Source: Proteobacteria bacterium SG_bin7 (GTDB taxonomy: Bacteria > Bdellovibrionota > Bdellovibrionia > Bdellovibrionales > SG-bin7). Taken from it: 64,000 nucleotides of DNA. The stretch covers positions 12,613 to 76,612 of the forward strand of contig LWDK01000044.1 of assembly GCA_002083485.1 (NCBI GenBank), written 5' to 3'. Under the pieces are notes generated by a model. It saw only the letters and a program-made list of their open reading frames with translations. It made no database searches and was not told the origin of the DNA. A program made the translations under genes and the position numbers. Below, piece after piece: positions 5,130 to 33,664 of the stretch (positions are counted from its first letter, which is position 1; every line of letters starts with the position of its first letter).

Positions 5130-5186
5130 CTCCTATGAATCGCTCTAATACGGCGATTAGACAAGCACTATTTTACTCGAAGTGAC

Positions 5187-5819
5187 CTACTCAGACTTTA
5201 GGCCACTGTAACGATCATAGGTAGATTTAGAATCATCCGCTTGACTCTTCCATTTCTTGACTTCTTTTTGGTAAGAAGCTTGTTTTGAAATCCAATTGGC
5301 CCGCTCACCTTCTGTAGCCTTTACACGCAAATCAATTTGGGTTCTTAATTCTGCCACATTTTTTCGCTGCTGATCCCATTCCATTTTTTCTTGATCAATC
5401 TGAACCAAACGCTCCTGGTAAGCATGAATGTTTTCTTCGCGCTTCATTTTATTGGCTTGAAGTTTATTGACTGCCTCTTGAAGTTTAGCGAGCTGCTCCT
5501 CCTCATTTTTTAATTTTTTATTCTCTTCTTCGATATGGGTGCCAACAGTAACTTTCTGCTTATCAAGCTCTTTTTTGTTAGCCTCGATCTGCTTGTCACC
5601 AAGATTTAACTGTTTACGCTGCTCTTTAAATGTATTTATGGCCTTGTCGATCTCAGCAATATTCTTATCGACCCTATCAAGATTTTCTTTGTACTGGTCA
5701 TAGTTATGACTACTATTTTCAGCGTTGCTTTTTAATTGGTCGAGTTTTTTATCAACATCTGTTCGCGACCACGCCGTTAAGCTTATCAACGAAACCAAAA
5801 TTATTAATAAGTCTCTCAT
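5187..5819 (-). CDS. Exported coiled-coil protein, unknown function
   Basis: Signal peptide MRDLLIILVSLISLTAWS followed by K/E/Q-rich heptad-like sequence. It lies 9 nt downstream of the 823-aa ORF on the same strand. Confidence 0.55.
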   Translation of the reverse strand: MRDLLIILVSLISLTAWSRTDVDKKLDQLKSNAENSSHNYDQYKENLDRVDKNIAEIDKAINTFKEQRKQLNLGDKQIEANKKELDKQKVTVGTHIEEENKKLKNEEEQLAKLQEAVNKLQANKMKREENIHAYQERLVQIDQEKMEWDQQRKNVAELRTQIDLRVKATEGERANWISKQASYQKEVKKWKSQADDSKSTYDRYSGLKSE

Positions 5820-5828
5820 AAAATCCTC

Positions 5829-8300
5829 CTACAAACTCGCACTTTTTTTCTTATCTTTAGGACAGTTGTTCTCAAGCGACGACCTGAAATTACCAATTTC
5901 GTCTTCCCAAATTTCACCATCAAAATTCCAATTCATATTTTTCTGTGTGTCTTTAACATGTTTTGGCTTGGTCGCGGCTCCCTTTTCGCCTCCGGCAACC
6001 TCAAAACGAATATTCTCTCCGCTGCCAGCGTAAACCTCGTACTTTAATAACTCGTTGTTGGCAAAAATCTCGTCGAGCTCTTCCTTAACGGCTTTAAGTC
6101 TTTTTACCAAAACTTTTTCGGCACGTGACCTTTGGTCATTCTTCTTATTCACCGCTAGAGTCACGCCTTTAGATTTTAAATCACGAAAATTACTTTGAGC
6201 CTTTTTTACCATTTCGACTCGAAACTCTAAACTTCCAAGTCTCCTATTGACCGCGGCAAGCTGAGATTTCATCTCGTTTACCTCGATTGGACTCAATTGC
6301 AGCTCCCCTTTTGTATTGGGTGTTTTTGTCAGCTTCGCTGTTAAAGTCCGAGACTCATTTTTTAAATTCGCTATTTTTGTACCAATGCGATTTAAATCCC
6401 GGGCGAAAAAGTTTTCAACAAAACGCCATTGCTCCACTTCATCCACCATTTCATTAACCGCATTTTGGGCGTTAATAAAATCACGGTGTCTTGCCATCTC
6501 ACGCACAACCTGCATCGGTAGTCCGTCCACACTTATTAGATTTTGATTTAGCAAGTGCAATTTGACGGTGTCGTAGTATTTTGCCGGCGATTTGTGCTCC
6601 GTAATGTATTTGCTAATAGCTTGCGACCAACCCCCATGAATACGCTCAAACAGATTGATAGACTGAAAAGCATCACCATACTGACAGAGATTGATATAAC
6701 CAATCGTGCGCACGGCGAATGATTCTGGTTTATAAACCTTAGCAAATATATTTGTTTGCACACTGAACATATTTCCGATCGCCCCAGCCGGGTCATTACT
6801 CTGCAATTGCGCCCAACCCTGCTCAATTAAACCCTGAACCCATTGCGGATGATCTTTTTTTATTTTTAAAAAGGACTGACTGGCCTCAGCATATTGCTTA
6901 CTATTGTAATAGGTCCTCCCCATATTTAAATGCACCAGCGCTTCAATTTTATGGGGATCACCTTTTTTATTCAGATACGCAATTAAATTTTTTCCTGTTT
7001 CAATGCTGTCTTTGTTATTGCCCAGCAAAACTTCCGAACTAAAAACAATAAATTGCGCGCGCGTGTAGTACTCACTCTTTTCTGAAACTTTTTTTGCGTG
7101 ATTTAATGCGGACTCGGCGTTTCCATCATGAGCCGATACTTTTGCCAATAAAAAACTTATCGCGTCGTATGTAGATGCCGTTAAATCTTTAAACTTTTCT
7201 TTACCAGCTCGCACAATTTCTGCGACGTCATCTTCGAAGGCAAATTTAACGTTGTCAGCAATGGAGGTCATGGCTAATTTTCCGTATTCATCATCTTCGT
7301 TCTTGATGACCGCTCTCATATCATCAACATATTGAGCATACAAACCCATTTCTTTTTCGCATTTTCCCGCCAGATACTTTGCTTCGGCCGCGTATTGGCT
7401 TTTGTCTTTTACCGACTGTAGCAAACCAACCATGTTGTGACAGGACTTGTTGTCATCGTTGATCATGTAAGATGCGATCATTATTAATTCCGGCTCAGAG
7501 AGAGGTTTTGATTCTTTCTCGATAATTTCATTTGGTTGTGCCAGGGCATAGTTTACGGCATCAATCTTTTCTTTAGTAACTGGAAAATCGCCAGTTTTTA
7601 TTTTTGAAACGACAGCCTTTGCGTCCGCGACTTTTTCAATCACCTTGGGAATATTTGCCTCTGACTTTTTACGGTCAACTAAGTCTGGAGACGCAAGCGC
7701 CTTGAATGGTTTTAGTTTAATCGCTTTAAAATCGACTTTTTCACCAACAATATCACGTGCAGAAATTTTGTCCTCGGTTCCGATGTCAAGACGAGGAATT
7801 TCCTTTTTGATTTTTCCAATAACGACAACACCGGATTTGTTTCTCGTCAAGGTGCTGTCGCCCTTTCGACCGGCTTCAACGGCCATAGGCTTAGTTTCTT
7901 TGGCTTGACGTACCATTGCCTTAAGTTGTTCTGAAGTTGTACCCCGATCTTCAGACTCAACAATACTTTCGCGTACAGGCGCTGGACTTGGTTTTACTTC
8001 CGCCGCGGAAGTGGAAGTCGTTGGTGGCGAAGTTACTGCCGCCGTAGCAGTAGACACATCATTTGCGGGGCCTCGATTTTGCCCAGTTTGCCCGACTTGA
8101 GTTTTTGTTTCATCTTTTTTCTCATCTTTTTTCTCAAATAAATTATTTGCCCAGGTACGCACTTTCACTTCGATTTTTTTGGCTTGATTCTTAGCTCGAG
8201 TGACTAAATTACTCCAACGCGCCCCCCAACCTTCGTCGGCGAGAGCTGCGCTTGAAAAGCTCAATGCGCAAATGAAAATTACCAAACTAAGCTTTTTCAT
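5829..8300 (-). CDS. Large exported TPR-like / coiled-coil protein, distal member of the Agl/Glt-like cluster
   Basis: Signal peptide ...SFSSAALA|DEG, a P/T/S-rich spacer, a helical-repeat (TPR-like) central region and a C-terminal coiled coil. It lies 12 nt downstream of the OM barrel gene. Confidence 0.6.
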   Translation of the reverse strand: MKKLSLVIFICALSFSSAALADEGWGARWSNLVTRAKNQAKKIEVKVRTWANNLFEKKDEKKDETKTQVGQTGQNRGPANDVSTATAAVTSPPTTSTSAAEVKPSPAPVRESIVESEDRGTTSEQLKAMVRQAKETKPMAVEAGRKGDSTLTRNKSGVVVIGKIKKEIPRLDIGTEDKISARDIVGEKVDFKAIKLKPFKALASPDLVDRKKSEANIPKVIEKVADAKAVVSKIKTGDFPVTKEKIDAVNYALAQPNEIIEKESKPLSEPELIMIASYMINDDNKSCHNMVGLLQSVKDKSQYAAEAKYLAGKCEKEMGLYAQYVDDMRAVIKNEDDEYGKLAMTSIADNVKFAFEDDVAEIVRAGKEKFKDLTASTYDAISFLLAKVSAHDGNAESALNHAKKVSEKSEYYTRAQFIVFSSEVLLGNNKDSIETGKNLIAYLNKKGDPHKIEALVHLNMGRTYYNSKQYAEASQSFLKIKKDHPQWVQGLIEQGWAQLQSNDPAGAIGNMFSVQTNIFAKVYKPESFAVRTIGYINLCQYGDAFQSINLFERIHGGWSQAISKYITEHKSPAKYYDTVKLHLLNQNLISVDGLPMQVVREMARHRDFINAQNAVNEMVDEVEQWRFVENFFARDLNRIGTKIANLKNESRTLTAKLTKTPNTKGELQLSPIEVNEMKSQLAAVNRRLGSLEFRVEMVKKAQSNFRDLKSKGVTLAVNKKNDQRSRAEKVLVKRLKAVKEELDEIFANNELLKYEVYAGSGENIRFEVAGGEKGAATKPKHVKDTQKNMNWNFDGEIWEDEIGNFRSSLENNCPKDKKKSASL

Positions 8301-8312
8301 AAGCCTTACCCC

Positions 8313-9179
8313 TTAAAAGAAGTACGTTAAACCAAACAATAAGAAGCTTGAGTGAAACATTTCGTTGCGGAGTTCAGATCCCGTAGCAGCACCGCCACCA
8401 CCATTGCGATATTTCAGAACTTTTTGTTGTTGCCAGCGATTTTTGAAATCAATTCTTAAGGCAAATTCTTTCGACAAGAAAAACTGTTGACTGAAATCCA
8501 GAGCGTAGGCAATCGTGCTTTCCGTTTTATTCCCCACAGCAGGATCCACAAACTGTTCATAAGTTACCATTGCCAGACCTGGAGACACCGCGAAATCAAA
8601 ATACATAATTTTACTTCCAAGCAAACTTGCTTTCGCATAAATAGGAACAAAGTTATAGTTCACTCCTATTGCGTACTTGTCGCGATTCATATCTGGAAGC
8701 GCGCCGTTAGAAGTACTGAAGGTATCAACAAGAGTACTGTTTTTAAATGGATAGCTAGAGTAACTAACTTCTACACCGTGGCGTTCGTCAAAATAGTAGT
8801 TCACAGCGCTATTCACAAAAGTTCCAGAGCTGTAGCTATCGTTAGTGGGTAGTCCGGCCGACAGTGACAGCGAAACTCTCTTTGCTTTCGTATAAGTTCG
8901 ATTCTGCACTACGGTAAAATCGGTGTCTTGCGACGACCAATATTTTTCTTCCAGACCACTTACATCTAACTTTTCATCCTTACCAACGTTGGCTGCAGGA
9001 GCGCCCGCAGCTTTTTTGTCGGCAGGGGCACCTGGCGCAGGATTAGGATTTGCCGCCGCTTCCGCATTCGGTGCGGATTTCTTTTTTCTTTGATATTGTG
9101 ATGACTGCGCGAGCGCATCGCTGGTCATCATGTTGCAAATCAATAGCAGCACCACAAAAAACATATTCTGACGGCCCAT
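8313..9179 (-). CDS. Outer-membrane beta-barrel domain protein (GltH-like position)
   Basis: Signal peptide, Ala/Pro-rich spacer, alternating strand pattern and C-terminal ...LLFGLTYFF. Resembles the myxobacterial-type OM beta-barrel domain family. Confidence 0.65.
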   Translation of the reverse strand: MGRQNMFFVVLLLICNMMTSDALAQSSQYQRKKKSAPNAEAAANPNPAPGAPADKKAAGAPAANVGKDEKLDVSGLEEKYWSSQDTDFTVVQNRTYTKAKRVSLSLSAGLPTNDSYSSGTFVNSAVNYYFDERHGVEVSYSSYPFKNSTLVDTFSTSNGALPDMNRDKYAIGVNYNFVPIYAKASLLGSKIMYFDFAVSPGLAMVTYEQFVDPAVGNKTESTIAYALDFSQQFFLSKEFALRIDFKNRWQQQKVLKYRNGGGGAATGSELRNEMFHSSFLLFGLTYFF

Positions 9180-9212
9180 AGGCTATCCTTTCCTTAAGAA
9201 TTACCAACTGTA

Positions 9213-10841
9213 TTAGTTAGTGCTCTTAAATAAAAACGGATACGAAACAAGCACGGTTGTTCCCCCTTTTGGAGTTGGAAACACCCAGCTTGCAACACGC
9301 TTCAGAATACATCCTTCGACTACAGCGTCTTGTAAGGTTGAAGATCCAATCTTTGATTGGACGACAGAACCCGTCGCACCAATCGTAAACTGTACTTTTA
9401 TTTTCCCATATAAATCTGGTTTCGCGCTCAACTGGCGCTCATAGCAATAACGAATATGGCCAATTTGAGTACTAATGAATTGCGAAATCACTTCGCGATC
9501 CAAACCACCTTCGACATCAGTTTCTTCATCAATCGTGGCGACATTTCCGGTACCAACACTACCCGGAGTCAAAGCGCCGTAAGTTCTATAGGAACTTGCG
9601 CCACCAGCACCGACTGTACCAACACCACCGATTTTATGTGTGCCGCCACCACCAGTACCCGTTCCCGTACCTACACCAACAGCACCAAGTCCAGTACCCT
9701 TACCAACATTAGCGAGACCAGCGACAGCAACTGCACCTGCAGGAATTCCACCAGTTACGTTATTATTATCAGTATTGTTTACCCGCACCAACGTGCCAGA
9801 CGTTGTTCGCTTTGATAGTCTTCCTATTAAACCGCCGAGATTGGCTGCTTTGATAGACCGAATTGCCGCTTGTCCACCGCCAGCCGCCTTACCGTTACCA
9901 CCAGCAGGACCAAGTCCTGGAGCAAGATCATAACTTAGATTCTTCCCACTCGGATTTTTTGTCGGTGACAAAATGTCTACGGGTGAATTTGGGTTTGGGT
10001 TTGGACCCATCGGCTTACCACGATTTATAATAGACGCCCCGAGTTTCTCAGCTTTAGCTATTTTCTTCTTAACAACTTTCGCGTCATAAATCATTTGTGT
10101 GTAAGGATTTAACTCCTTGGGAATCTCAACAACTACTTCTTCTTTTTTGTCAGTACTGCCGTAAGGAATGGAGAGCGCTCCGATTAAAACCGCCATCGTC
10201 ACCATAGCACCGATTAAACTTCGACGAATATCTTCTGGAAAGAATTCTTTCCAGGTATCGGGTTTATAATTATTTCGGCGGGCCAAACCCACCAAGCGCT
10301 GTTGAATCGTCAAATTACCAAACTCGTGCCAAACCCACTGTTTTGTTTTGGGTGCTGGCAATGACTCTCTTTTTATTCCATAACCAAAGTCATAGTTTGC
10401 ATTCGCTGGTAAAAAAATTGTTTCTACCACATGACCTTTTTGGCGTACGACAACTTGATGGGCAAGTTCGTCAGACCTTGAACTGTTGATATCTCTTTCT
10501 TCCTTTTGGAAAAGCACTCGTCTTACTTCATGAGGACGCACATCAATCGTATGCCCGCAAATTTCAAATTTCATCGGGCCAGTGATTTTATGTTCCACAA
10601 TATCGGTTTTTTTCTGTTCGCTATCCATTGAGCCCTTAATCGAACCAACATCACTGACATACCAAGCATCCTCACGAAAATCGATAATGGCATGAATACC
10701 CATGACATTGTCGCCCAACAAACGAAAATCAGCGTCACGCGACGATCCCACCGTAAAATAGCGATTACCCGGACGCAGATGGCGTTGCTTTAAAAATTTA
10801 TTTTGGTGTCTATGTTCGACCTTTAATTGTACGCTCTTCAT
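9213..10841 (-). CDS. FHA domain / single-TM / Gly-rich linker / AgmX-PglI (TonB-C-like) C-terminal domain protein (GltG/PglI-like)
   Basis: FHA-like N-terminus GSSRDADFRLLGDNVMGIHAIIDFREDAWYVSDVGSIKG. TM segment LIGAMVTMAVLIGALSI. G/T/V low-complexity linker. C-terminus IRYCYERQLSAKPDLYGKIKVQFTIGATGSV...VSYPFLFK is typical of the AgmX/PglI tail. Confidence 0.7.
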   Translation of the reverse strand: MKSVQLKVEHRHQNKFLKQRHLRPGNRYFTVGSSRDADFRLLGDNVMGIHAIIDFREDAWYVSDVGSIKGSMDSEQKKTDIVEHKITGPMKFEICGHTIDVRPHEVRRVLFQKEERDINSSRSDELAHQVVVRQKGHVVETIFLPANANYDFGYGIKRESLPAPKTKQWVWHEFGNLTIQQRLVGLARRNNYKPDTWKEFFPEDIRRSLIGAMVTMAVLIGALSIPYGSTDKKEEVVVEIPKELNPYTQMIYDAKVVKKKIAKAEKLGASIINRGKPMGPNPNPNSPVDILSPTKNPSGKNLSYDLAPGLGPAGGNGKAAGGGQAAIRSIKAANLGGLIGRLSKRTTSGTLVRVNNTDNNNVTGGIPAGAVAVAGLANVGKGTGLGAVGVGTGTGTGGGGTHKIGGVGTVGAGGASSYRTYGALTPGSVGTGNVATIDEETDVEGGLDREVISQFISTQIGHIRYCYERQLSAKPDLYGKIKVQFTIGATGSVVQSKIGSSTLQDAVVEGCILKRVASWVFPTPKGGTTVLVSYPFLFKSTN

Positions 10842-10856
10842 ATTGTCCTCAATGCC

Positions 10857-11099
10857 TCAATGGATATATTCCAACGACTCTTTGACGCCATCGTTAAGTT
10901 TCTTTTTTACTTTATACATGGGCGCAAACTCCATTCCACGCTTCTGCACTAAATATGATCCATCAGGACTTCTTACTTTACCATTTACGTCCGTATCGCC
11001 AAAATCCACTCGCTGTACTTTTCCAGTTTTAGTCCCTTCTGCACTTACAGTTGCTGACATAAAACTAATGATGATGAAAGACAAAATTAGGAATCTCAT
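10857..11099 (-). CDS. Small exported protein (GltF-like position)
   Basis: 80 aa with a signal peptide (...SATVSA|EG). Its start overlaps the stop of the upstream TPR gene by 4 nt (translational coupling). Confidence 0.5.
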   Translation of the reverse strand: MRFLILSFIIISFMSATVSAEGTKTGKVQRVDFGDTDVNGKVRSPDGSYLVQKRGMEFAPMYKVKKKLNDGVKESLEYIH

Positions 11100-11983
11100 C
11101 TTTTACCTCCCGCGACTTTACGAGTTGTTTTGATTAATTTCTCTAACTCCTGAATTCGCTTCTGAAGCTGGTTTTTGTTATCTGAGTTTATTAATAAATT
11201 TTGATACTCTAAAAGAGCTTCCTCGTAGCGCTGAAAGACAGTTTCAAGCACGACAGCCCTTTCGTAACGAGCCTCAAAGTCTTTTTTATCTTTTGCAACA
11301 ACTCTGTCAAAAAAATCCAGCGCAAGTTTTGGGTCACCATTGACGACCATACATCGAGCTGCCCCCAGTAGTGCATCTCGGTGGAATGGAACGAATTTCA
11401 AAACATTGCGAAAACTTCTTTCTGCTGCCACGTAATTTCCTGAGCGTAAGCGAATTTGAGCGATGAATAGATCTGCTTCGTACAGACCAGAATCAAGCTT
11501 CAAAGCTTTTTCAAATTCAGCCATCGCCATATCCGTTTCGTTGTTCTTTAAGTAGATTCGCCCGCGCTGGTAGGGAAAAAGAGCTAAGCTTTTGTCTTTT
11601 TCACTTGCCTGCTCGAGCATCCAAAACGACCGCGTCACATCACCACGCGCATCCGCGCTCAAACTCATAAAGTAAAATCCCCATGGGGCCGTCGGAAAGC
11701 TATCCGCCAGGTGCTGACCAATGAACTCAACGCTACTCCACTTTTCTTTCGCCGCACAAGCCGCTCCCAACTCTAAGTGTTCGCGCCAAGTTCTGTTTTC
11801 GACTTCTTTAACATTCAACGGGCACTTTTTATTCGATTCGCGGGCCAACTGTGCGGCCGATATATTGATTGCTTCTACGGTGAAGCTTTTGCCAGCAAGC
11901 TGCGGGTCTTTACTCATAAGCTGCGGATTAGTGACGCAGCCAACTCCCAATAAAGCAATGAAACTCACCCTTAATGTCTTCAT
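11096..11983 (-). CDS. TPR-repeat lipoprotein (GltE/AglT-like)
   Basis: Signal plus lipobox LLGVGC. TPR-like repeats (YQRGRIYLKNNETDMAMAEFEKALKLD..., AQIRLRSGNYVAAERSFRNVLKF). 4-nt overlap with the upstream gene. Confidence 0.6.
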   Translation of the reverse strand: MKTLRVSFIALLGVGCVTNPQLMSKDPQLAGKSFTVEAINISAAQLARESNKKCPLNVKEVENRTWREHLELGAACAAKEKWSSVEFIGQHLADSFPTAPWGFYFMSLSADARGDVTRSFWMLEQASEKDKSLALFPYQRGRIYLKNNETDMAMAEFEKALKLDSGLYEADLFIAQIRLRSGNYVAAERSFRNVLKFVPFHRDALLGAARCMVVNGDPKLALDFFDRVVAKDKKDFEARYERAVVLETVFQRYEEALLEYQNLLINSDNKNQLQKRIQELEKLIKTTRKVAGGKR

Positions 11984-14937
11984 GTGCTCACCTCACGCAA
12001 TTTCGGTAGCACTAAACTGGGTGGAGTTACTCGGATATTAAATTGAGGAACGGTTGAATTTTGAGCGCGATTTAAAGCTTGACGCAATTCTTCAGCAGTA
12101 TTGTCACTTAATCCTGCCTTAGCAGCCTGACTTACGCCAGAACTTAAAGTACCAAGCCCCTTATCTTCAATTGGAGAAGCAAGCTCCTCGAGCTGGGCAC
12201 GAAAGGCTTTTTCGTCTTCTGCGCTTGTACCTTCAGGAGTCTCGATTCCGCGAACTGACTGAGCAAAGTGAAGATAACTTTCTCCTAAACGCTTTAGCGC
12301 CATTAAACCCACTTTTGTATGCCCCATCTTTATCACCGACTCATACGCGCTCTGAACTTTTTCTAAGCGTTGGGTTTTTAATTGAATCACCAAAGCCAAT
12401 CTCTCTGGTTTCGCTTTTAAACTTTGATTTTTAAATTCTTCCTCTAAAACAATACCCTGATAGTATCTCGCCATGGAACGTACGTAATTTAGATCTGCAC
12501 CGTTCATTCCTAAAATTCTTTTAGCAGTATCGAATGCTTTACCGTAATCTCTACGGTCCATTTCATCCTCTAACTGGGTCAAAGTGATTTGGCCTAATAA
12601 CGGTTGGATCCCATGACTTACTATTATACCCTGCACCTTTCTCAAATTGCCTTTTGCACCCATAGACTTTTCCATAACAAACCATCGGCCAACAACTTCA
12701 CCATCCACACCTTTACTGTTTTTTACATGCTTTTCGTATAGCCTTCGCGCTGTATCTTTATTTTCTGAGATCGAGAAGAAATTTGCTGCCATCAACTCCC
12801 ATTTACGCCCTTCTTTTGGATCACGCTTCGCCACATCTAAAAGTACGGCGCCAGCCTCTTGAACACGACCTGTTTTTTCGAATGCTTGTGCAGACCGCAA
12901 GAGAACATCTTTGGCATTTTTGTCATCAGGATATTGGTTTACATATTGATGACCTTGAGCCGCTGCCTCGTAAAACTTTCCGGTTTTGTAGTACAACTCG
13001 ATCGCATTCCACCATGCACGACTTGCCAGCGGAGACTTCATATTTTGCTTGGTGAAGACTAAATACTCCGCAATTGCTTTCTCCAAATTGCCCTTTTCTT
13101 CCATAACCTGAATCTCTGCAAAATAAGATTCATGGTAAATTTTTGTTAATTTCTCTTTTCTTTCTGAGTTGTTCTCCTTAGCTGCTAGGTTCTTAGAGTA
13201 CCCCTTCAGTTCGGTAAAAGACTTTTCTTTGTTGTAAATGTCCATTAGCAAATCTTGGGAACGGTTTGCTAACTCCACATTTTCTTTTTGTGTTCCAATC
13301 TCGCTAAACATTTTTTTGGCTTCGACAAAATTATTCTGAGTAAAGGAGATAAATCCAATTTTATATTTAGTATCAATAACGAATTTGCCTTTGGGACTTC
13401 CCCGAAAATATACGCCCGCTAAATTTTTAAATAGTTTTGTATCGACGTCATTCCAGGACTTATCCCCAACGGCTTTCTCAAGCGCCACAAGTGCCCCGTA
13501 GCCAGCATCGTGGCGCAGCTTTTCGTCCTTACTTTCGCTGTTGGCAACAAGCGCATAGTTTTCACTGGACTCACGAAATTTTTCGTTTTGAAAAAGTAAC
13601 TCGGCAAAGTTAAATCGCATCGGATTTAGACTGTCTGTTGATTTCGTGCCGTCAAGGTACAGTCTATAGGCCGCTTCTGCCGCAACTGACAATTCTTTAA
13701 ATTGTTGTTGCTTTCGCCACATGCGATGCCATTTTGTAGCAAGTCGCAGACTTGTTTCGTCAAAAATCCCACGACAGTCAAGATCCGCCGTAATTGTAAA
13801 CCCTTTTGAAATGTCTTCTAGTTTATTGTCTTTGTGTGCTTGTGACCATCTACTGTTGGGTCTACAAATTTCGTGAAAGTTCTGTAGCTCGCGAACGGCC
13901 AGCGTTCTATCCTTTAGAGTTTCGTAATTGTTTACCAACTCCATATATGCCGTAGCTAAATATACAGATTTTGGAGAATTATTTATGAGATCATGGAGAA
14001 CAACAGACAAATCTCGGTAACGACTATGCGCCTTGTAAAGCTCGGTCAGACGCAGTAGTACAGGAGCAACACCAAACGCTCCCGCAGGTTTTCTGAAATA
14101 TGAGTAAGCTTTTGCCGCGGGATATACATCTTCGAAGAACAAAGCCATATCTTCGAGAGCTTCTTTTCTTAAATCAAGTCGCGAGTCCTGCCCCTCACGC
14201 TGAGCTTTTTCACCGAATTCCACAAGTGTTTCAAGTTCGCTTAATCCCGCCTTTGCATCTCGCAAGTTATAGTGGGTCCATGCCGTTTTATATAGTCCGT
14301 AAGGATAAACGCGTGATTCAGGAAACTTTTTTATGTCATTAAAATACTTTAAGGCTTTCTCGAAGTTTCGCTCTTGAAAAAACATTTCCCCCACAGAAAG
14401 ATAGGCATCTGGAATGGCCCCAGACTCGGGGTATTCCATGATTAGTTTATTAAACAAGATTTTTGCTTTGCTGTGGTTATCAATACCTTGATTAGCAAAG
14501 CCATTATTAAATAAAACCATGTCCATTTGCTCGTAGCGCGGAAACTGACGACCTATATGATCGTAAATCTCAATGGCATTATGAACTGCCGCCTTCTCGG
14601 TTGCTTTTTTACCAAAGTTAGGAAGTATGTCCCTGATTTTATCATTTGACTTATTGAGCTCAAAAAAGCGATTTGACTTAGCCTGACGCATATACAATTC
14701 CGCTTTTCTAAACAAAAGATCGGCCTCCATCGAAGTGCCACGCTTTTGCTTTAAAAGCTTATCTAATTGAGCCATCGCCCGGGCCTCCGTGGCCTTGACT
14801 AACATTTCTGTTTTCAACGCACGGACATCCTGCGCATCATCGCCAGGATTACCTTTAAGCTCTTTCATAACGGAACTATCTTTAGCATTGGCTTTAGCAA
14901 ACCCGCAAAAAATAACTCCCAATAAAATCAGTTTCAC
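11980..14937 (-). CDS. Large periplasmic TPR-repeat protein (GltD/AgmU-like)
   Basis: 985 aa with signal peptide ...FAKANA|KD and helical TPR-like repeats throughout. It sits immediately after the two ExbD-like genes and before the GltE-like gene, as gltD does in M. xanthus G1. Confidence 0.6.
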   Translation of the reverse strand: MKLILLGVIFCGFAKANAKDSSVMKELKGNPGDDAQDVRALKTEMLVKATEARAMAQLDKLLKQKRGTSMEADLLFRKAELYMRQAKSNRFFELNKSNDKIRDILPNFGKKATEKAAVHNAIEIYDHIGRQFPRYEQMDMVLFNNGFANQGIDNHSKAKILFNKLIMEYPESGAIPDAYLSVGEMFFQERNFEKALKYFNDIKKFPESRVYPYGLYKTAWTHYNLRDAKAGLSELETLVEFGEKAQREGQDSRLDLRKEALEDMALFFEDVYPAAKAYSYFRKPAGAFGVAPVLLRLTELYKAHSRYRDLSVVLHDLINNSPKSVYLATAYMELVNNYETLKDRTLAVRELQNFHEICRPNSRWSQAHKDNKLEDISKGFTITADLDCRGIFDETSLRLATKWHRMWRKQQQFKELSVAAEAAYRLYLDGTKSTDSLNPMRFNFAELLFQNEKFRESSENYALVANSESKDEKLRHDAGYGALVALEKAVGDKSWNDVDTKLFKNLAGVYFRGSPKGKFVIDTKYKIGFISFTQNNFVEAKKMFSEIGTQKENVELANRSQDLLMDIYNKEKSFTELKGYSKNLAAKENNSERKEKLTKIYHESYFAEIQVMEEKGNLEKAIAEYLVFTKQNMKSPLASRAWWNAIELYYKTGKFYEAAAQGHQYVNQYPDDKNAKDVLLRSAQAFEKTGRVQEAGAVLLDVAKRDPKEGRKWELMAANFFSISENKDTARRLYEKHVKNSKGVDGEVVGRWFVMEKSMGAKGNLRKVQGIIVSHGIQPLLGQITLTQLEDEMDRRDYGKAFDTAKRILGMNGADLNYVRSMARYYQGIVLEEEFKNQSLKAKPERLALVIQLKTQRLEKVQSAYESVIKMGHTKVGLMALKRLGESYLHFAQSVRGIETPEGTSAEDEKAFRAQLEELASPIEDKGLGTLSSGVSQAAKAGLSDNTAEELRQALNRAQNSTVPQFNIRVTPPSLVLPKLREVST

Positions 14938-16002: not shown

Positions 16003-16743
16003 TTAAACCGCCTTTAATTTTCCCGGGGGTGGAGGGGATTTCCGACCAGTTCCATTACCGCCACCATTTCCCTCTTCGTTCGGATACACAGAATTTACAT
16101 GAAAAGGCTGATAATGGCGCGTGGACAGCCAGTCTACGAGCTTCGATGAGTTCTCAATAATTTCTTCAAAATGCTTGTTCTGTCTTGCAAACAAAAATGA
16201 ATAAACAATCATTGCGGGAATCGCGATCATCAAACCAAACGCGGTCGTGTACATCGCCATCGAAATACCTTGAGTCAAAATTAATTGTTTTTGGGCTGGG
16301 TCAGCTTTGGCAACGGCCGCAAATGCCATGATTAGACCTTGAATAGTACCTAGTAGCCCAAGAAGAGTACAAACGTTCGCAATCATCGAGAGGTAACCCA
16401 AGCGTTTGCCAATGAGAGGCATTACCTCAGCAATAGCAATTTCCTGGCCCTTTTCTATAGACTCGTCATCGCGGTCTGATCTTTCTAAAATCTTTTTAAT
16501 AACCGCAACAAGGGGAATTTTTTCTTTTCCTGCACAATGAGTTACGGCTTCCTCTATTTTATCAGATTGTACAAGGCTGCGAATATTACTCATAAATTCA
16601 TTCGCATTTATCGCATAATTAAAATAAAGAGCTTTGACTCTGTCTGCGACGACAACAATCGCCATAAAGCCCATCACTACAATCAAGTACCCGGCAAAAC
16701 CGGCATCATGTATCGACTTTAAACCTTCTCTCAAATGTTCCAT
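16003..16743 (-). CDS. MotA/TolQ/ExbB proton-channel family protein (AglR-like)
   Basis: Three TM segments and the conserved GLLGTIQGLIMAFAAV motif. Gly/Pro-rich C-terminal tail. Confidence 0.85.
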   Translation of the reverse strand: MEHLREGLKSIHDAGFAGYLIVVMGFMAIVVVADRVKALYFNYAINANEFMSNIRSLVQSDKIEEAVTHCAGKEKIPLVAVIKKILERSDRDDESIEKGQEIAIAEVMPLIGKRLGYLSMIANVCTLLGLLGTIQGLIMAFAAVAKADPAQKQLILTQGISMAMYTTAFGLMIAIPAMIVYSFLFARQNKHFEEIIENSSKLVDWLSTRHYQPFHVNSVYPNEEGNGGGNGTGRKSPPPPGKLKAV

Positions 16744-16762: not shown

Positions 16763-17725
16763 CTACTTAGTTCCTATTGGTTGATAAAAAATATCTATTT
16801 TTACATCCGTGCGAGCTATCGCGTTTCCGTGTAATTGAATGCTGTTGTCGGCTGCGATGTAAGTCCAGCCATTAACCGGATCATTTGGAATTTTGTTACC
16901 GTTAATTAGAACCTCAATCGAAGAAACATCTGGTACGCGATCTAAATAAAAACGAGAAGCGGTGTCATAAATTCTCTTTTCAACGCCCGCCAAAGCTGCA
17001 CTAAAATCGCCCGTGCAAATTGTAGTTTTAGCACCACCAGAATTATCAACTAACTGCATGTAGCGATAACCTGGCTCAGTATAGTTTCCATATGTAGAAC
17101 AATTTTCTCCCGCGGCACCGGTTACACCAATCATATGAAAAACCCAATTTCTCTCGCCAATGGGAGTGCGTGGTTTAATTGTGTCCAGAAAACTAATGTA
17201 GTCGCTGGGATTACCCGGACTGCCGTCATCTTCGTTCGTTACAACAATAACCACCAACAATGCATCACTACGAAAAAAACCAGTATTTGTTGAACTACGC
17301 AACTCAAGTGCTCGCTTCATCCCACCTAAACCTTGTTCTAAGTCATAGGCCGCTTCGGCAACGGTGATTTTTTGATTAAATGCAGCAGCTATGTTAGGAG
17401 TCGATTTGGTAAGTACCGCAGGGCTTCCGATAAATTTTCCCTCAGTTCCTCCAGAGCGCATATCAACTGTCGTGGCGGCGATTCTAAAATCAAGGTTACG
17501 AGATAAAAGTCCGTTCAAGAAGGCACCTGATTTTTGTGCGAGCACAGTCTGGTGCTGGGCCATACTTGGTGTGTTGTCGATGACCCAAAGAATGTCGACT
17601 TTATTGTTCCATGTGATACTCGATGAATGACTTTCACTGGCCGGTGCCAACAAGAATGCTTGTTGTTCGCACGCGCTCAAGAAAACCGCCGCGATCACAA
17701 AAAATATTCTTGCCATTTTTAACAC
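16763..17725 (-). CDS. von Willebrand factor A domain lipoprotein
   Basis: GTG start preceded by AGGAG. Lipobox FLSAC. vWA core DILWVIDNTPSM (MIDAS-like DxTxS) and LLVVIVVTNEDD. Confidence 0.65.
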   Translation of the reverse strand: MLKMARIFFVIAAVFLSACEQQAFLLAPASESHSSSITWNNKVDILWVIDNTPSMAQHQTVLAQKSGAFLNGLLSRNLDFRIAATTVDMRSGGTEGKFIGSPAVLTKSTPNIAAAFNQKITVAEAAYDLEQGLGGMKRALELRSSTNTGFFRSDALLVVIVVTNEDDGSPGNPSDYISFLDTIKPRTPIGERNWVFHMIGVTGAAGENCSTYGNYTEPGYRYMQLVDNSGGAKTTICTGDFSAALAGVEKRIYDTASRFYLDRVPDVSSIEVLINGNKIPNDPVNGWTYIAADNSIQLHGNAIARTDVKIDIFYQPIGTK

Positions 17726-17849
17726 GCGTACACTCCTAAGTTAGTTAATAACTCATTGCTCGGAGCGTACATTCACAGGTTAGAGCAAACGGGAACCAAA
17801 CCAATTATAATTTTAAATACAATAGCCTACTTCTTTACTTCCTTTGTCT

Positions 17850-18653
17850 TTATGCGGCCTTCTTGGCGTACTCCGCAAATTCAGTGACAAAGCCTTTTGC
17901 TTTTTCACCAATATTCGTAAATTTCACACCATAGTGAATAGATTGTTCTTTATGTTTAATGCCCTTTAGGAAACGTTTCGATACAACTTCACAAACAGCA
18001 TTAAACGGCGGAACACCATCACCGGGCTTAAAATGTAAAAATAGAGTCTGACCAGGGATGATCATTGAATTCTCAATAACGAGACCTGCACCGCCAGCGC
18101 TTATTTCTATACTCTGACCCTTCCAAACTTGTTTATTGTCGTGAACGATAATTGACCCATCAAATTTTGCACGCTTATGGCGACGACGAAAAAAGAGCTC
18201 GCTGACGCCTTTTTCTCCTGAATTTTTGAGATCACGAATTTTATCGGCCTTAAACTCGTCGACTTCGGCAACCCGTTGCCAGGTGGCCATTCCACTTCGC
18301 CACACGTATTCATATTCAAAAAGGGATTTTTCCTGAAGCATTTTAACAACATCAGTAAATGAAAATGGACCATAGCGGTTTTCGCCTTTGAGCGTATACC
18401 ATTCCTGTTCGCTATTTTCGGCAACGGGGGAGGTAATCTCTGATTTCATAGGTTTAGCAATTTTGGGAGTTGAATGTTTGGCTGTCTCACTTAAAGGTTC
18501 AAAGTCGACCACAGAAACCCAATCAGATTTTGACTCTAAGTAGATAAAATCGCTCGGCGCCATTTCGCCACCCCTTAATTTCCCCTCGACCTCTTTAACG
18601 CTAAAAGGCCCCTGCTGCTGACCATTTATATAGACATAGAACTGTGTTTGCAT
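17850..18653 (-). CDS. Tandem GYF_2 domains + C-terminal PilZ domain protein (putative c-di-GMP receptor)
   Basis: Two GYF_2-like repeats (FYVYINGQQQGPFSVKEV...SDWVSVVDF and EWYTLKGENRYGPFSFTDV...GMATWQRVAEVDEF). PilZ motifs RRRHKR (RxxxR) and EISAGGAG ((D/N)xSxxG-like). Confidence 0.7.
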   Translation of the reverse strand: MQTQFYVYINGQQQGPFSVKEVEGKLRGGEMAPSDFIYLESKSDWVSVVDFEPLSETAKHSTPKIAKPMKSEITSPVAENSEQEWYTLKGENRYGPFSFTDVVKMLQEKSLFEYEYVWRSGMATWQRVAEVDEFKADKIRDLKNSGEKGVSELFFRRRHKRAKFDGSIIVHDNKQVWKGQSIEISAGGAGLVIENSMIIPGQTLFLHFKPGDGVPPFNAVCEVVSKRFLKGIKHKEQSIHYGVKFTNIGEKAKGFVTEFAEYAKKAA

Positions 18654-18825
18654 AAACCTATCCCCTTTGTCTCTCTCTCTGGACTATCGGGAGGTCGAGG
18701 CACAGACTTTAGTAAATAAATCTAGACAAACCTTGTGAATCTTTGAAGTTTTGTGGAACTAATTGACGTTTTCTCAATTTGAAATAGTTACATGGTATAT
18801 TAAATCTCATTATAGTACGAAGAGT

Positions 18826-18903
18826 TTAATACGATTGGAAATTATGATTCAGTGCGTGTATCTTGTCATTGTTGCAGCGATAGGCATTTAAATTATTTTT
18901 CAT
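18826..18903 (-). CDS. Candidate 25-aa mini-ORF (MKNNLNAYRCNNDKIHALNHNFQSY)
   Basis: Hand-translated. The ATG is preceded by AAAGGAG with a 4-nt spacer, directly after a long hairpin. There is no other support. Confidence 0.2.
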   Translation of the reverse strand: MKNNLNAYRCNNDKIHALNHNFQSY

Positions 18904-18915
18904 GATCTCCTTTAA

Positions 18916-18967
18916 CGAACGAAGCCGGCGCGCAACTCATGGGGGGTACGCGCCCCGGTTTCGTTCG
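18916..18967. terminator. Long GC-rich hairpin downstream of the prolyl oligopeptidase gene (probable terminator, possibly bidirectional)
   Basis: CGAACGAA-GCCGGCGCG ... CGCGCCCCGG-TTTCGTTCG. The outer 8 bp are perfectly complementary and the inner GC stem has a bulge. On the plus strand it is followed by GTTTTCTC; on the minus strand it is followed directly by an SD. Confidence 0.5.
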
Positions 18968-18992
18968 GTTTTCTCAAAACGAGAAGAAGACC

Positions 18993-21282: not shown

Positions 21283-22032
21283 ATGACCAAACATCTACAG
21301 TCTGTCGATCACATTTACGATGCCCTCTTAAATGAAATCAAGGAACATAAAACCAAAGGCGAAAATGTCATGGCAGTTTTTGATCTTGATTCTACTCTCA
21401 TCGAAGTCGGCCCGCGCATGACACAAATCCTACGTGACTTTGCCAAGGAAAAAAAACATCTAGGAAAGTATCCCAAAGAATGTCGAATACTCGAAAAATA
21501 CAACCATCACCCCGAAGATTGGGGCATTGAACACTGCATCGAACGCATTGGATTAGCCTCAAGCTCATTTGATTTTTTCAAAGACCTCACTCGCTATTGG
21601 CGTGGAAGGTTTTTTTCTAATGACTACCTTCAGTTTGACGAACCTCTACCTGGTGCCAACGAATTTTTACAGGAACTCCACAAGAACGGAGTACATATTT
21701 CTTATCTAACGGCACGTGAGTCTAAAGCTATGCTTGAAGGAACAGTCCAATCCCTAAAAAAACATGGTTTTCCCTTAGAAGAGAAAAATGAAAACCTCTT
21801 TTTAAAAGAAAAAATGGAAAAGCCAGATCCAGAATTTAAACGCGATATCTTAAAAGACATGGTTAATAATTATGGAAGCGTCTGGTTTTTTGAGAACGAA
21901 CCTATCAATCTTCGCGTTGTTCGCGAAACCTTACCACAAGTCCGCCTAGTCTATATTGACTCGGTTCACTCTGGTCGCGAAGCTCCACCTACGGAGCTTG
22001 CAGTAATTACTCATTTCCAGCGCCAGAAGTAA
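21283..22032 (+). CDS. HAD-superfamily hydrolase
   Basis: Motif I VFDLDSTLIE (DxD) and HAD-like later motifs (YLTARES; FFENEP). Confidence 0.7.
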   Translation: MTKHLQSVDHIYDALLNEIKEHKTKGENVMAVFDLDSTLIEVGPRMTQILRDFAKEKKHLGKYPKECRILEKYNHHPEDWGIEHCIERIGLASSSFDFFKDLTRYWRGRFFSNDYLQFDEPLPGANEFLQELHKNGVHISYLTARESKAMLEGTVQSLKKHGFPLEEKNENLFLKEKMEKPDPEFKRDILKDMVNNYGSVWFFENEPINLRVVRETLPQVRLVYIDSVHSGREAPPTELAVITHFQRQK

Positions 22033-24691: not shown

Positions 24692-24714
24692 ATGACCTCC
24701 AAAAATCATTCGAA

Positions 24715-24744
24715 TTGACATCATAGCGACTCATTTTCTAAGTT
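24715..24744 (+). promoter_or_regulatory. Candidate sigma-70 promoter for the yfbR-like gene (TTGACA-18-TAAGTT), very short leader
   Basis: Perfect -35 TTGACA at 24715-24720, an 18-nt spacer and TAAGTT at 24739-24744. The ATG at 24754 has no SD. Confidence 0.4.
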
Positions 24745-29326: not shown

Positions 29327-30271
29327 TTACGAAGATTTATGTTTCGTTGTTTGATTTCTACCGTTATTTTTTGACCGATACAAAGCCTCGTCAGCAGCTT
29401 TAAATAAATCATCCCACCCGGCCATAGTTGCGCTTTTTTCAGCTACGCCTAATGAAATCGTAATAGGAAGTTTTTTACCTTCATATTCAAAAACATGGGT
29501 TTGTACCGCCTGACGAGCGCGTTCCGCAATATCGGCTCCTTGCTGTAAATTACTACCGTGGAGAATCACAACAAATTCTTCACCACCGAAGCGTGCAAAG
29601 AAATCATCGCCGCGAATCACTTTGGCTTTCACAAGGTCCGCAAGGGTTTTTAACACGTAATCTCCGGCCAAGTGCCCAAAGTTATTATTCACCTGCCTGA
29701 AGTGATCTAAATCAAACGCAATCGCCGTCAAAGGAAATTGCATTAGTCCCGATCGTTTAAATGCCTCTTTACCATGCTCCAAGAGAGCTGCCTTATTAAA
29801 TATCTGTGTGAGCCCATCGATTTGGCCACGATCATATGTGCTCTTTGTAGTCATGGATTCAATGTTACCGCTCTCTAAAAATTTAAAGATGACATTTCCA
29901 GTCTTTATCTGATCATTGTTTTTCAATTTTACCAGAGTAAGTGGTGGCACAACTCTTCCGTTAATGACAGTTTTATTTGTCGACTCTAAATCCATTATGG
30001 AAACTTCTTTTCCAGAAAACACAACCTTGGCGTGTGACTTACTAACACTTTTATCGTCGACAAACACGTGCGAGCGCGGGTCTCTACCAACAACAACGTC
30101 TCCCGCCGTAAGCGGCCACTGCTTACCAATGTAAGAATTAGGACCGACCAATAATACTAAACTCGGAGGAGCATTCGTCGCTTCAGCGAGACGACCTTTG
30201 AAGGTGTCACTCGAGATAACGCTTGTCTTATCTCCCGCTGTTATTTCGTCGTCTTTAGGATCTTCGCTCAT
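29327..30271 (-). CDS. FHA domain-GGDEF diguanylate cyclase (DgcB-like architecture)
   Basis: FHA region VVVGRDPRSHVFVDDKSVSKSHAKVVF...STNKTVINGRVV. GGDEF domain with active site RFGGEEF, I-site RGDD and the canonical base-specifying Asp (FGHLAGDYVL). Confidence 0.85.
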   Translation of the reverse strand: MSEDPKDDEITAGDKTSVISSDTFKGRLAEATNAPPSLVLLVGPNSYIGKQWPLTAGDVVVGRDPRSHVFVDDKSVSKSHAKVVFSGKEVSIMDLESTNKTVINGRVVPPLTLVKLKNNDQIKTGNVIFKFLESGNIESMTTKSTYDRGQIDGLTQIFNKAALLEHGKEAFKRSGLMQFPLTAIAFDLDHFRQVNNNFGHLAGDYVLKTLADLVKAKVIRGDDFFARFGGEEFVVILHGSNLQQGADIAERARQAVQTHVFEYEGKKLPITISLGVAEKSATMAGWDDLFKAADEALYRSKNNGRNQTTKHKSS

Positions 30272-32647: not shown

Positions 32648-33664
32648 TTAGCTCGCTATATAAATACAGTTGCGTCCCGAGTTTTTACTTTGGTACATGG
32701 CCTGATCCGCAAGACTAATCAGTGAGTCTCTAGATTCCGCATGCTCCGGAAAAGCGGCCACTCCGATACTTGTGGTAATCTTATAAGTTCTTCCATCGAC
32801 GATAAAATCTTTTCTGGAGATTAAAGCACGAATTCTCTCAGCAGCGACGTTAGCGTTAACAGCGTTTGCTCCCACAAGCATTAGTAGATACTCATCTCCA
32901 CCATAGCGAATACCGACATCATTGCCGCGAATGTTCGTTTTTAACATTTGCCCAAGTTGCGAAAGAATTTTTGACCCAATGATATGGCCGTGTTGATCAT
33001 TCACTTCTTTAAAATGGTCGATATCCAAAAATAATACTGAAAAACAGTTTTTTTGTCGCCGCGAAAGAGAAATCTGTCGGTCGAGCGCCATAGCTAAATA
33101 ACGTTGGTTAAACAAACCCGTCAAGTCATCAACATATGCCAACTCTCTCGCTCTTACAAAGCGAAGCGCTTCCGTCAAATTACGGGCAACGACTTGCCGC
33201 ACGTAAACGATACTTTCAAAAACCCAGGTCGTTTTCCAGTCTTTACGTGGCTTTTCAATTAAAATATCACCTATTTTTTCCTGATTCACATGACCATAGA
33301 TGGGCCATATCAGAAATTCACTGTCCGTTGTCTTGATGTGAACAAAATCATTTAGATCAAATTGTATAAGGCCCTTCGCTAAACCAGCAATGAGGGAATT
33401 CAGCTCACCTTGCGATTTCGATCCAGTGGTTAAATATTGAGGACAGGCTTCACCCAAACGCGCGCGCGGAATTTGAATGCTGCCTTGCTCAAATTGAGTC
33501 CGAATCATGACCTCAAGGCGTTCGCCCAAAAACCAATACACCTCTTGGGCCTCAAATTCATTTTGAAAGAGCTTCATAGTTTTCAATACAACTTCTCGGC
33601 AGTTGTCGAGCTCAAGATCAGATTCAAAATTTAGTAGCTTTTGCAATACTAGTATGTCGCCCAT
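32648..33664 (-). CDS. GAF-like N-terminal domain + GGDEF cyclase with Hypr-type Ser substitution
   Basis: GGDEF domain LFLDIDHFKEVNDQHGHIIGSKIL aligns without gaps to PleD DIDFFKKINDTFGHDIGDEVL. Ser231 (codon 32972-32974) replaces the guanine-specifying Asp. Active site RYGGDEY, I-site RGND. Confidence 0.8.
   Translation of the reverse strand: MGDILVLQKLLNFESDLELDNCREVVLKTMKLFQNEFEAQEVYWFLGERLEVMIRTQFEQGSIQIPRARLGEACPQYLTTGSKSQGELNSLIAGLAKGLIQFDLNDFVHIKTTDSEFLIWPIYGHVNQEKIGDILIEKPRKDWKTTWVFESIVYVRQVVARNLTEALRFVRARELAYVDDLTGLFNQRYLAMALDRQISLSRRQKNCFSVLFLDIDHFKEVNDQHGHIIGSKILSQLGQMLKTNIRGNDVGIRYGGDEYLLMLVGANAVNANVAAERIRALISRKDFIVDGRTYKITTSIGVAAFPEHAESRDSLISLADQAMYQSKNSGRNCIYIAS

Follow-up and report, generated by a model that had tools for sequence, protein, structure and literature searches.

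A GYF-GYF-PilZ protein encoded beside an Agl/Glt-type gliding cluster of Bdellovibrionota is a candidate cyclic-dinucleotide receptor for gliding

Bdellovibrio relies on gliding motility for its exit from exhausted prey and for movement on surfaces and in biofilms, and this motility depends on the cyclase DgcA/Bd0367 and on cyclic-dinucleotide products; gliding of Bdellovibrio bacteriovorus is abolished when DgcA/Bd0367 is lost (Hobley et al. 2012; Lowry et al. 2022). The receptor that passes the DgcA signal to the gliding engine has been sought since 2012, when the product of the PilZ gene Bd1482, which heads a gliding operon and is followed by aglR (Bd1481) and aglQ (bd1480), was proposed to receive it (Hobley et al. 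2012). A PilZ gene as the gliding receptor is, for Bd1482, already in print since that year. In Myxococcus xanthus, residues 138-222 of the gliding protein GltJ form a GYF domain that binds a proline-rich sequence of AglZ through its beta-sheet, the most conserved surface of prokaryotic GYF domains (Attia et al. 2024, PMC11135422); GltH, GltI, GltJ and GltK are absent from Bdellovibrio (Luciano et al. 2011). Here, we describe a gene in a 64,000-nt stretch of the Bdellovibrionota genome SG_bin7 (contig LWDK01000044.1; the whole stretch is called the window below) that encodes two GYF_2 domains followed by a PilZ domain (GYF-GYF-PilZ; the family to which it belongs is called GYF-PilZ). Among candidates for the receptor that couples second-messenger signals to Bdellovibrio-type gliding, its product is the best.

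The initial annotation of the window had read in this gene two GYF_2 repeats and a PilZ domain carrying RRRHKR and EISAGG, and had placed it 124 nt upstream of, and in the same orientation as, a vWA/MotA/ExbD/Glt-like cluster. The coordinates of the open reading frames (ORFs), the Pfam matches and the positions of the motifs bore out this description. The gene and the parts of its product are as follows.

17850..18653, minus strand: GYF-GYF-PilZ gene, 267 aa (ORF and translation, Pfam, homologs, structural model)
18489..18647, minus strand: GYF_2 domain 1 (GYF1), residues 3-55 (Pfam)
18252..18407, minus strand: GYF_2 domain 2 (GYF2), residues 83-134 (Pfam; best stretch 85-134)
17895..18188, minus strand: PilZ domain, residues 156-253 (Pfam, E 3.1e-12)
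18171..18188, minus strand: RRRHKR, residues 156-161, in which R157-R-H-K-R161 fits RxxxR
18090..18107, minus strand: EISAGG, residues 183-188, an ExSxxG variant of (D/N)xSxxG

The ORF begins with ATG and has a Shine-Dalgarno-like sequence, AAAGGGGA, on its 5' side. GYF_2 (PF14237) matched the two stretches with 74 bits against a cut-off of 25.8 (E 7.9e-21), and PilZ (PF07238) matched with 47.2 bits against a cut-off of 22.5. Pfam and NCBIfam searches of the protein found no zinc ribbon, transmembrane helix or AgmX/PglI (TonB-like) C-terminal domain, and no DNA- or RNA-binding domain was found with Pfam. Two identities were tried and rejected. The GltJ equivalog model (NCBIfam NF033761) scored 35.9 bits against a cut-off of 450, with a match limited to model positions 148-200, and membership in the YcgR family of flagellar brakes was dismissed since Pfam gave no PilZN match and the N-terminal part consists of two GYF_2 domains.

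A database search returned 629 homologs, and both domains were present in 120 of 120 among the matches listed. The source-given taxon names of these listed matches were nearly all Bdellovibrio or Bdellovibrionales, with one partial metagenome-assembled genome (MAG) labelled Flavobacteriales, so that the family appears to be large and restricted to Bdellovibrionota. An exhaustive HMMER search against 1.84 billion cluster representatives gave 110 representatives at E <= 1e-30, among which were shorter variants of ~180-200 aa with a single GYF domain and PilZ (the same form is seen in P0193, P0190 and P0192). The closest genome record was an uncultured Bdellovibrionales MAG with identical gene order, whose GYF-GYF-PilZ protein was 82% identical to that of the window. 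A search with the class-B member L068 yielded 73 matches, no cultured strain among them.

Conservation was evaluated in an alignment of 68 members that were 45-90% identical to the window protein, all 68 of which matched both GYF_2 and PilZ. Seven residues of the PilZ part, F154, R156, R157, R158, R161, S185 and G188, were invariant, and E183 was kept in at least 90% of the members. Thus, at the position of the (D/N)xSxxG motif, Ser and Gly are fixed in this family while the first residue is nearly always Glu, not Asp or Asn; in a profile alignment, E183 lined up with the Asp of DISATG (DxSxxG) in PP4397. A motif census of the 120 database proteins and of 85 related loci found ExSxGG in nearly all of them, including members only ~33% identical. 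This pattern supports, in silico, strong purifying selection on the putative PilZ ligand motifs across the family.

In GYF2, the invariant residues of the same alignment were W85, L88, G95, P96, F97, L106, Q107, W118, W125 and R127. Mean column identity was highest in PilZ (0.75), followed by GYF2 (0.70), GYF1 (0.56) and then the linkers, and GYF1 is the domain that the single-GYF variants do not have. One of these variants (6612-7157 of L089) was found at the same locus as the two-GYF members, with the HAD gene described below upstream and a large tetratricopeptide-repeat (TPR) gene overlapping downstream. GYF1 is therefore dispensable in some lineages, and the occupation of the same locus by a single-GYF member, together with the ranking of conservation, indicates that GYF2 and PilZ form the conserved core.

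The structure of GYF-GYF-PilZ was modelled with AlphaFold2 (AF2) on the family alignment. The model (mean predicted local distance difference test score 89.5) consists of three soluble domains, with a beta-beta-alpha-beta-beta arrangement in each GYF copy and a disordered linker at residues 67-79. Its PilZ part comprises strands at 167-248 and a helix at 250-266, and forms a six-stranded beta-barrel that is superposable on ligand-bound PilZ domains. When the model was compared with the Protein Data Bank (PDB) by Foldseek, 30 matches were obtained at E <= 1e-3, with PilZ domains bound to cyclic di-GMP (c-di-GMP) on top: YcgR 5y6g (E 1.9e-5), MotI/DgrA 5vx6, 4xrn, Alg44, BcsA and MapZ. Lower in the ranking stood GYF domains: that of GltJ (7z3c, 27% identity) and, from eukaryotes, those of GIGYF2 (7rup) and Smy2 (3fma). 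The best matches of the predicted PilZ fold are thus the c-di-GMP-bound PilZ domains of the motility regulators YcgR and MotI. The sole significant sequence match in the PDB was again 7z3c, reached through GYF1 (E 6.2e-5 with the single sequence and 7.6e-5 with a profile), and the GltJ model of NCBIfam matched both GYF domains at E 4.7e-9.

On the minus strand of the window, the next ORF after GYF-GYF-PilZ starts 124 nt downstream and encodes a lipoprotein with an N-terminus of the vWA/metal-ion-dependent adhesion site (MIDAS) type, and the genes of a gliding cluster follow.

16763..17725, minus strand: vWA/MIDAS-like lipoprotein, GTG start (NCBIfam: partial matches to CglD and to the N-terminal part of the Bdellovibrio MIDAS adhesin model, Bd0875-type)
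16003..16743, minus strand: MotA/ExbB/TolQ-type stator protein, AglR-like (Pfam MotA_ExbB, E 1.5e-23)
15450-15998 and 14940-15449, minus strand: two ExbD/TolR-type genes, AglQ/AglS-like (Pfam ExbD, E 2.2e-14 and 1e-13)
11096..14937, minus strand: large TPR protein (985 aa, GltD position) and GltE-like TPR lipoprotein (Pfam, NCBIfam)
10857..11099, minus strand: 80-aa secreted ORF at the GltF position (ORF list)
9213..10841, minus strand: GltG-like protein with a cytoplasmic FHA domain, one transmembrane helix and an AgmX/PglI C-terminal domain (NCBIfam)
5187..9179, minus strand: outer-membrane beta-barrel protein, GltC-like protein and coiled-coil protein at the cluster end (NCBIfam OMP_myx_plus, gliding_GltC)

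The GltG-like protein matched the NCBIfam models gliding_GltG (E 1.2e-43) and myxo_SS_tail (E 2.5e-31). The order of the TPR genes and the beta-barrel/GltC-like/coiled-coil end are kept in related loci, and ORFs of 76-83 aa stand at the GltF position in L002, L003 and L005 as well. Compared with the Agl/Glt "core complex" that Luciano et al. (2011) defined, this cluster is an expanded form. The 64-kb window was found to contain no further GltG/J-type gene and no other GYF or PilZ gene, which agrees with the statement of the initial annotation that the cluster holds no GltJ-like gene. The vWA-like lipoprotein has the lipobox LSAC and, at the MIDAS position, a D-x-T-x-S motif (IDNTPSM).

To compare the neighbourhood of the gene, the cluster proteins of the window were mapped onto the 85 related loci, which had been gathered by scans of reference genomes and metagenomes and by exact-sequence look-ups (the scan of reference-genome contigs with the single window protein gave one locus, L001). 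Enough flanking sequence to be informative was present in 54 of them. The core gliding cluster adjoined GYF-PilZ in 31 of the 54, in four gene orders: GYF-PilZ > vWA > MotA..., as in the window; GYF-PilZ > MotA...; MotA-ExbD-ExbD > GYF-PilZ > TPR...; and GYF-PilZ > TPR.... A further 19 had GYF-PilZ > vWA followed by unrelated genes (e.g. ABC exporters or a subtilase), and four had GYF-PilZ alone, so that a tie to the gliding cluster or to the vWA partner was seen in 50/54. The vWA gene was the most frequent neighbour and directly followed GYF-PilZ in 27 informative loci, B. bacteriovorus included.

A neighbour-joining tree of the GYF-PilZ proteins separated two clades, one cluster-linked and one with the vWA gene only. 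Upstream and divergent to GYF-PilZ lies the gene of a HAD-family hydrolase.

21283..22032, plus strand: HAD-family hydrolase gene, divergent neighbour upstream of GYF-PilZ

This neighbour is common to 42 loci of both clades, and the window, with HAD upstream and divergent and with vWA and the core cluster downstream, shares the pattern of this orthologous group. TP_methylase and NUDIX genes are often found near the HAD gene, which was used as a positional marker only. ABC exporter genes follow the cluster in the cluster-linked locus L002 and directly follow the vWA gene in the vWA-only loci that were checked. By the same HAD neighbour and the ABC exporters, the two clades are positional orthologs derived from a single ancestral locus; the core cluster has left this locus in some lineages, where the GYF-PilZ/vWA pair stayed. 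That the linkage survives so much rearrangement speaks for a functional connection with the gliding system.

The family also has members in cultured Bdellovibrio strains (P0267, WP_063244176.1 and others, found in a search with P0085), which are of the vWA-paired type. P0267 of cultured B. bacteriovorus is 43% identical to the window protein. In three B. bacteriovorus assemblies, a homolog that is 39% identical to the vWA protein of the window begins 28-49 nt after the GYF-PilZ gene and is followed by convergent ABC exporter genes; in one complete chromosome, the locus lies at ~2.90 of 3.74 Mb. A protein of ~304-314 aa consisting of a response regulator and CheX is encoded divergently, immediately upstream of GYF-PilZ, in the B. 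bacteriovorus loci L086, L087 and L091 (at about 8868-9806 and 4851-5795), and has no equivalent at the corresponding place in the window. The pilZ gene Bd3100 is described in the literature as down-regulated when cells leave the attack phase; its neighbour in number, Bd3099, is a vWA gliding gene which, like bd1480 (aglQ), is surface-induced and lower in bd0367 mutants (Lowry et al. 2022). Judging from synteny and position, P0267 is probably Bd3100 and its vWA partner Bd3099, of which the vWA-like lipoprotein of the window would probably be the counterpart.

Based on these results, we propose, as a reading that we hold to be on balance somewhat probable, that GYF-GYF-PilZ works in the cytoplasm as a soluble receptor that is dedicated to the Agl/Glt-type gliding machinery of Bdellovibrionota and recognises a cyclic dinucleotide, c-di-GMP being the most likely one. 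That a ligand is bound, which one it is, what the GYF domains target and in which direction gliding is regulated are all inferred, as follows. The PilZ beta-barrel would hold the nucleotide through R157xxxR161 and E183xS185xxG188, and binding would wrap the RxxxR loop round the ligand, as in YcgR and MotI. As this loop directly follows the helical linker from GYF2, its movement may alter how the adaptor part is presented. The GYF_2 pair, in which GYF2 is the conserved core, would dock on short proline-containing linear motifs at the cytoplasmic face of the machine, and docking would switch the engagement or assembly of the motor. The ligand-bound form is expected to promote gliding because loss of DgcA/Bd0367 abolishes it. 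The initial annotation had proposed a nucleotide input to gliding, by c-di-GMP or by cyclic GMP-AMP (cGAMP). This interpretation is partly supported, in silico, by the conservation of the motifs, the PilZ fold, the linkage in 50 of 54 loci and the lack of GltH, GltI, GltJ and GltK in Bdellovibrio, with one GltG/J-type gene in the window; nothing favours cGAMP over c-di-GMP.

Two sequences are the best candidates for docking, namely the C-terminal tail of the AglR-like protein, PPPxxxK[VI][AVS]-COOH, and a semi-conserved [LF]x[PA]P[KP]xxxW in the cytoplasmic part of the GltG-like protein, which in the window lies in the segment around ESLPAPKTKQWVW. The AglR-like protein of the window ends with a glycine-rich stretch and then SPPPPGKLKAV (last 20 residues ...RKSPPPPGKLKAV); among the tails of 18 distinct orthologs, PP or PxP was present within the last 15 residues in 13, and 17 ended with K-x-[AVS]. 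AglR and GltG of M. xanthus interact, and a model places the FHA domain of GltG at the cytoplasmic side of the AglR pentamer. It is plausible that an adaptor with two GYF domains could link the AglR-like stator to the GltG-like protein, with these motifs as the presumed ligands.

Several points weigh against this proposal. We know of no characterised PilZ domain with Glu at the first position of (D/N)xSxxG. The proline motifs are short and sit in tails that are probably disordered, and about one ortholog in four has a weak motif or none; they could be due to chance. In the 19 vWA-only loci, which include cultured B. bacteriovorus, GYF-PilZ adjoins only the vWA lipoprotein gene and no motor gene; therefore, the adhesin and not the stator could be the conserved functional partner. 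Lastly, Lowry et al. found cGAMP to act on the transcript levels of gliding genes, an effect that a post-translational adaptor does not obviously explain.

The window also encodes two GGDEF cyclases, which lie within 4.5 kb of each other.

32648..33664, minus strand: GGDEF protein, 338 aa, Hypr-like (GacA 6d9m, E 4e-44)
29327..30271, minus strand: FHA and GGDEF protein with GGEEF and Asp at the specificity position (6hbz match, E 5e-103)

By a wide margin, the best PDB match of the 338-aa protein was the Hypr GGDEF of Geobacter GacA (6d9m, 154 bits, versus 105 for PleD). Its base-specificity position is occupied by Ser231 (GHIIGS, versus GHDIGD in PleD) and its active site reads GGDEY, while residues 1-175 matched no Pfam family at E <= 1e-5. 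These sequence features make the protein, whose gene lies 14 kb away from the gliding cluster, a candidate cyclase for cGAMP production. The match of the other protein, the FHA-GGDEF structure 6hbz, is DgcB of B. bacteriovorus, the cyclase needed for prey invasion.

The persistence of the GYF-PilZ > vWA pair, which is seen in 27 informative loci and stands by itself in 19 of them (B. bacteriovorus among these, with gaps of 28-49 nt), makes an explanation centred on the vWA protein a serious rival, although we rate it as rather unlikely. GYF-PilZ would then act via the vWA/MIDAS lipoprotein: depending on a dinucleotide, it would regulate how an adhesin used in gliding or on prey is produced, exported or exposed at the surface, and its GYF domains would bind a factor in the cytoplasm that takes part in lipoprotein sorting or in gene expression. 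The 39% identity of the vWA proteins of the window and B. bacteriovorus and the dependence of the bd3099 transcript level on Bd0367 are in line with this. On the other hand, the core cluster adjoins GYF-PilZ with no vWA gene nearby in 23 loci, the signal peptide and lipobox of the vWA protein imply that it makes no direct contact with a cytoplasmic protein, and GYF-GYF-PilZ has no domain for binding DNA or RNA. Another reading, which we consider unlikely, was raised by the initial annotation, namely that a GltJ module is supplied in trans: GYF-PilZ would stand in for the cytoplasmic N-terminus of GltJ and recruit a platform protein, with PilZ in place of the MglA-controlled zinc-ribbon (ZnR) switch. 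The annotation had rightly pointed to a GYF-type domain in the cytoplasmic part of M. xanthus GltJ, where this domain is the module that docks on the platform (residues 138-222; PMC11135422). The absence of GltJ from Bdellovibrio (Luciano et al. 2011), the single GltG/J-type gene of the window and the matches to 7z3c (E 6.2e-5) and to the GltJ model (E 4.7e-9) could be explained in this way. The likeness, however, is what any GYF_2 domain would give: Pfam GYF_2 scored 74 bits and the GltJ model 35.9 of the 450 bits that it demands, and 7z3c was the only bacterial GYF_2 structure that the searches returned. Furthermore, GYF-GYF-PilZ has neither zinc ribbon nor MglA-binding linker, and neither membrane anchor nor TonB-like C-terminus. 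MglA is not known to be required for gliding of B. bacteriovorus, which also speaks against a GltJ stand-in. Outside Myxococcales, GYF proteins are uncorrelated with AglZ or MglAB (Attia et al., PMC11135422). Supply of the GltJ module in trans is thus a speculative reading that draws on sequence similarity at the family level.

The remaining alternatives concern the PilZ domain itself, and both centre on the fixed Glu at the place where canonical PilZ domains carry Asp or Asn. This residue could mean that the domain senses 3',3'-cGAMP and not c-di-GMP and is the receptor for a Hypr-GGDEF signal that controls gliding exit. We know of no PilZ domain that binds cGAMP, and a carboxylate at this position should still favour guanine, since it reads N1/N2. 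In addition, RxxxR does not deviate from the canonical form. Gliding requires the cGAMP that Bd0367 makes, and no receptor for it came up when the text of Lowry et al. (2022) was searched. As for the GacA-like cyclase of the window, which has Ser at its specificity position, 14 kb is too far to count as linkage, and a canonical FHA-GGDEF cyclase is encoded in the window as well. The support for cGAMP sensing is therefore circumstantial, and we hold it to be very unlikely. The same substitution, at one of the defining motif positions, could instead indicate a PilZ domain that, like type II PilZ, has lost nucleotide binding and only mediates protein interactions, which would make GYF-PilZ a constitutive structural adaptor. 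Non-binding PilZ domains do exist. However, degenerate PilZ domains lose RxxxR and the Ser and Gly, which here are invariant across >200 sequences, and we give this explanation equally little credence. One further reading is distinctly unlikely in our view: the protein might be the switch that the gliding machine of Bdellovibrionota has in the cytoplasm, where a cyclic dinucleotide, possibly cGAMP from a Hypr GGDEF, might replace the MglA-GTP/AglZ/GltJ polarity switch of Myxococcus, and ligand-bound PilZ might license the GYF domains to bridge the proline tail of AglR and the motif of GltG and so engage the motor. If the fixed Glu does tune the site for cGAMP, the protein would be the first PilZ-type cGAMP receptor.

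Two elements flank the GYF-GYF-PilZ gene.

18685..18711, minus strand: sigma-28 (FliA)-like promoter motif TAAAGTCTGTGCCTCGACCTCCCGATA (TAAAGTC-N12-CCCGATA), 31 nt 5' of the ATG (match to the consensus only)
17726..17849, minus strand: 124-nt GYF-PilZ/vWA spacer with the conserved block ATGTACGCTCCGAGC (alignment with L001 and L008)

The sigma-28-like motif was present 5' of eight of 74 orthologs (L001, L007-L011, L013 and L046) against ~0.1 expected from a background of 0.0014 per 160 nt, and is conserved in the closer relatives. Attack-phase genes of B. bacteriovorus are driven by FliA-type promoters, and the motif would fit the attack-phase expression of Bd3100. In the spacer, the block GTTCCCGTTTGCTC.AACCTGTGAATGTACGCTCCGAGCAA is nearly identical in L001, and its core ATGTAC.CTCCGAGC also occurs in L008; no terminator-like site was found in this 124-nt gap. 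Rfam gave nothing at gathering thresholds in the whole window and nothing at E <= 1 in 17600-19100, and a riboswitch or other RNA element upstream of GYF-PilZ was rejected as there was no Rfam match. Just upstream of the cluster, the minus strand also carries three peptidase genes, encoding an S9 prolyl oligopeptidase (18993-21056), an M1 aminopeptidase (22007-24724) and an M14 carboxypeptidase (27945-29306), as would suit a predator; L001, the closest relative, has the S9 and M1 genes too.

If the proposed role of GYF-GYF-PilZ is correct, a TolQR-like gliding motor would be under second-messenger control without the MglA/AglZ/GltJ platform of Myxococcus, and bacterial GYF_2 domains would have a second assigned role. 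For the receptor sought since 2012, a GYF-PilZ protein embedded in the gliding cluster is a concrete candidate. Beyond the proposal of Hobley et al. (2012), what is new is the identity of the adaptor as GYF, the conserved ligand motifs with their fixed Glu, the synteny that resists rearrangement, the positional orthology with the vWA-linked copy of B. bacteriovorus and the two candidate docking motifs; the literature searched gave nothing relevant on a link between bacterial GYF domains, or DUF4339, and PilZ, and a single paper in it mentioned Bd1482.

The nearest B. bacteriovorus HD100 counterparts resemble the window gene in their setting. Bd1482 is, like it, a PilZ gene 5' of an aglR/aglQ gliding operon; it is an uncharacterised gene and a possible member of the GYF-PilZ family. 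The likeness of Bd3100 lies in its being a pilZ gene numbered next to the vWA gliding gene Bd3099, and its equation with P0267 comes from synteny and position. In the related predator M. xanthus, the PilZ proteins PlpA, PixA and PixB modulate gliding or type IV pilus motility, and their architectures (REC-PilZ, PilZ-PilZ-acetyltransferase) differ from GYF-PilZ; to our knowledge, none of the three has GYF domains or is encoded in an Agl/Glt cluster. GltJ (AgmX) of the same species shares with GYF-GYF-PilZ the GYF_2 family and a place among the genes of an Agl/Glt gliding cluster; its GYF domain (7z3c) is the nearest solved relative and docks proline-rich AglZ to the machine (PMC11135422). Unlike the soluble GYF-GYF-PilZ, however, GltJ is a membrane protein of 674 aa with ZnR, an MglA-binding linker, a transmembrane helix and a TonB-like C-terminus.

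The closest parallel in logic is with YcgR of Escherichia coli and Salmonella and MotI/DgrA of Bacillus subtilis, dinucleotide-gated motility regulators whose c-di-GMP-bound forms target the flagellar motor or stator. As in these proteins, a C-terminal PilZ barrel with RxxxR and xxSxxG follows an adaptor part; their structures (5y6g and 5vx6) were the best matches of the model, and the GYF-PilZ gene stands beside a MotA/ExbB-type stator gene. The differences are that the adaptor consists of two GYF_2 domains and not of PilZN/YcgR_N, that the second motif starts with Glu, that the linkage is to a TolQR-like Agl gliding motor instead of a flagellum, and that the expected effect is activation and not braking. 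GYF-GYF-PilZ thus gives the theme of PilZ motility regulators a new architecture, one that goes with a gliding rather than a flagellar motor.

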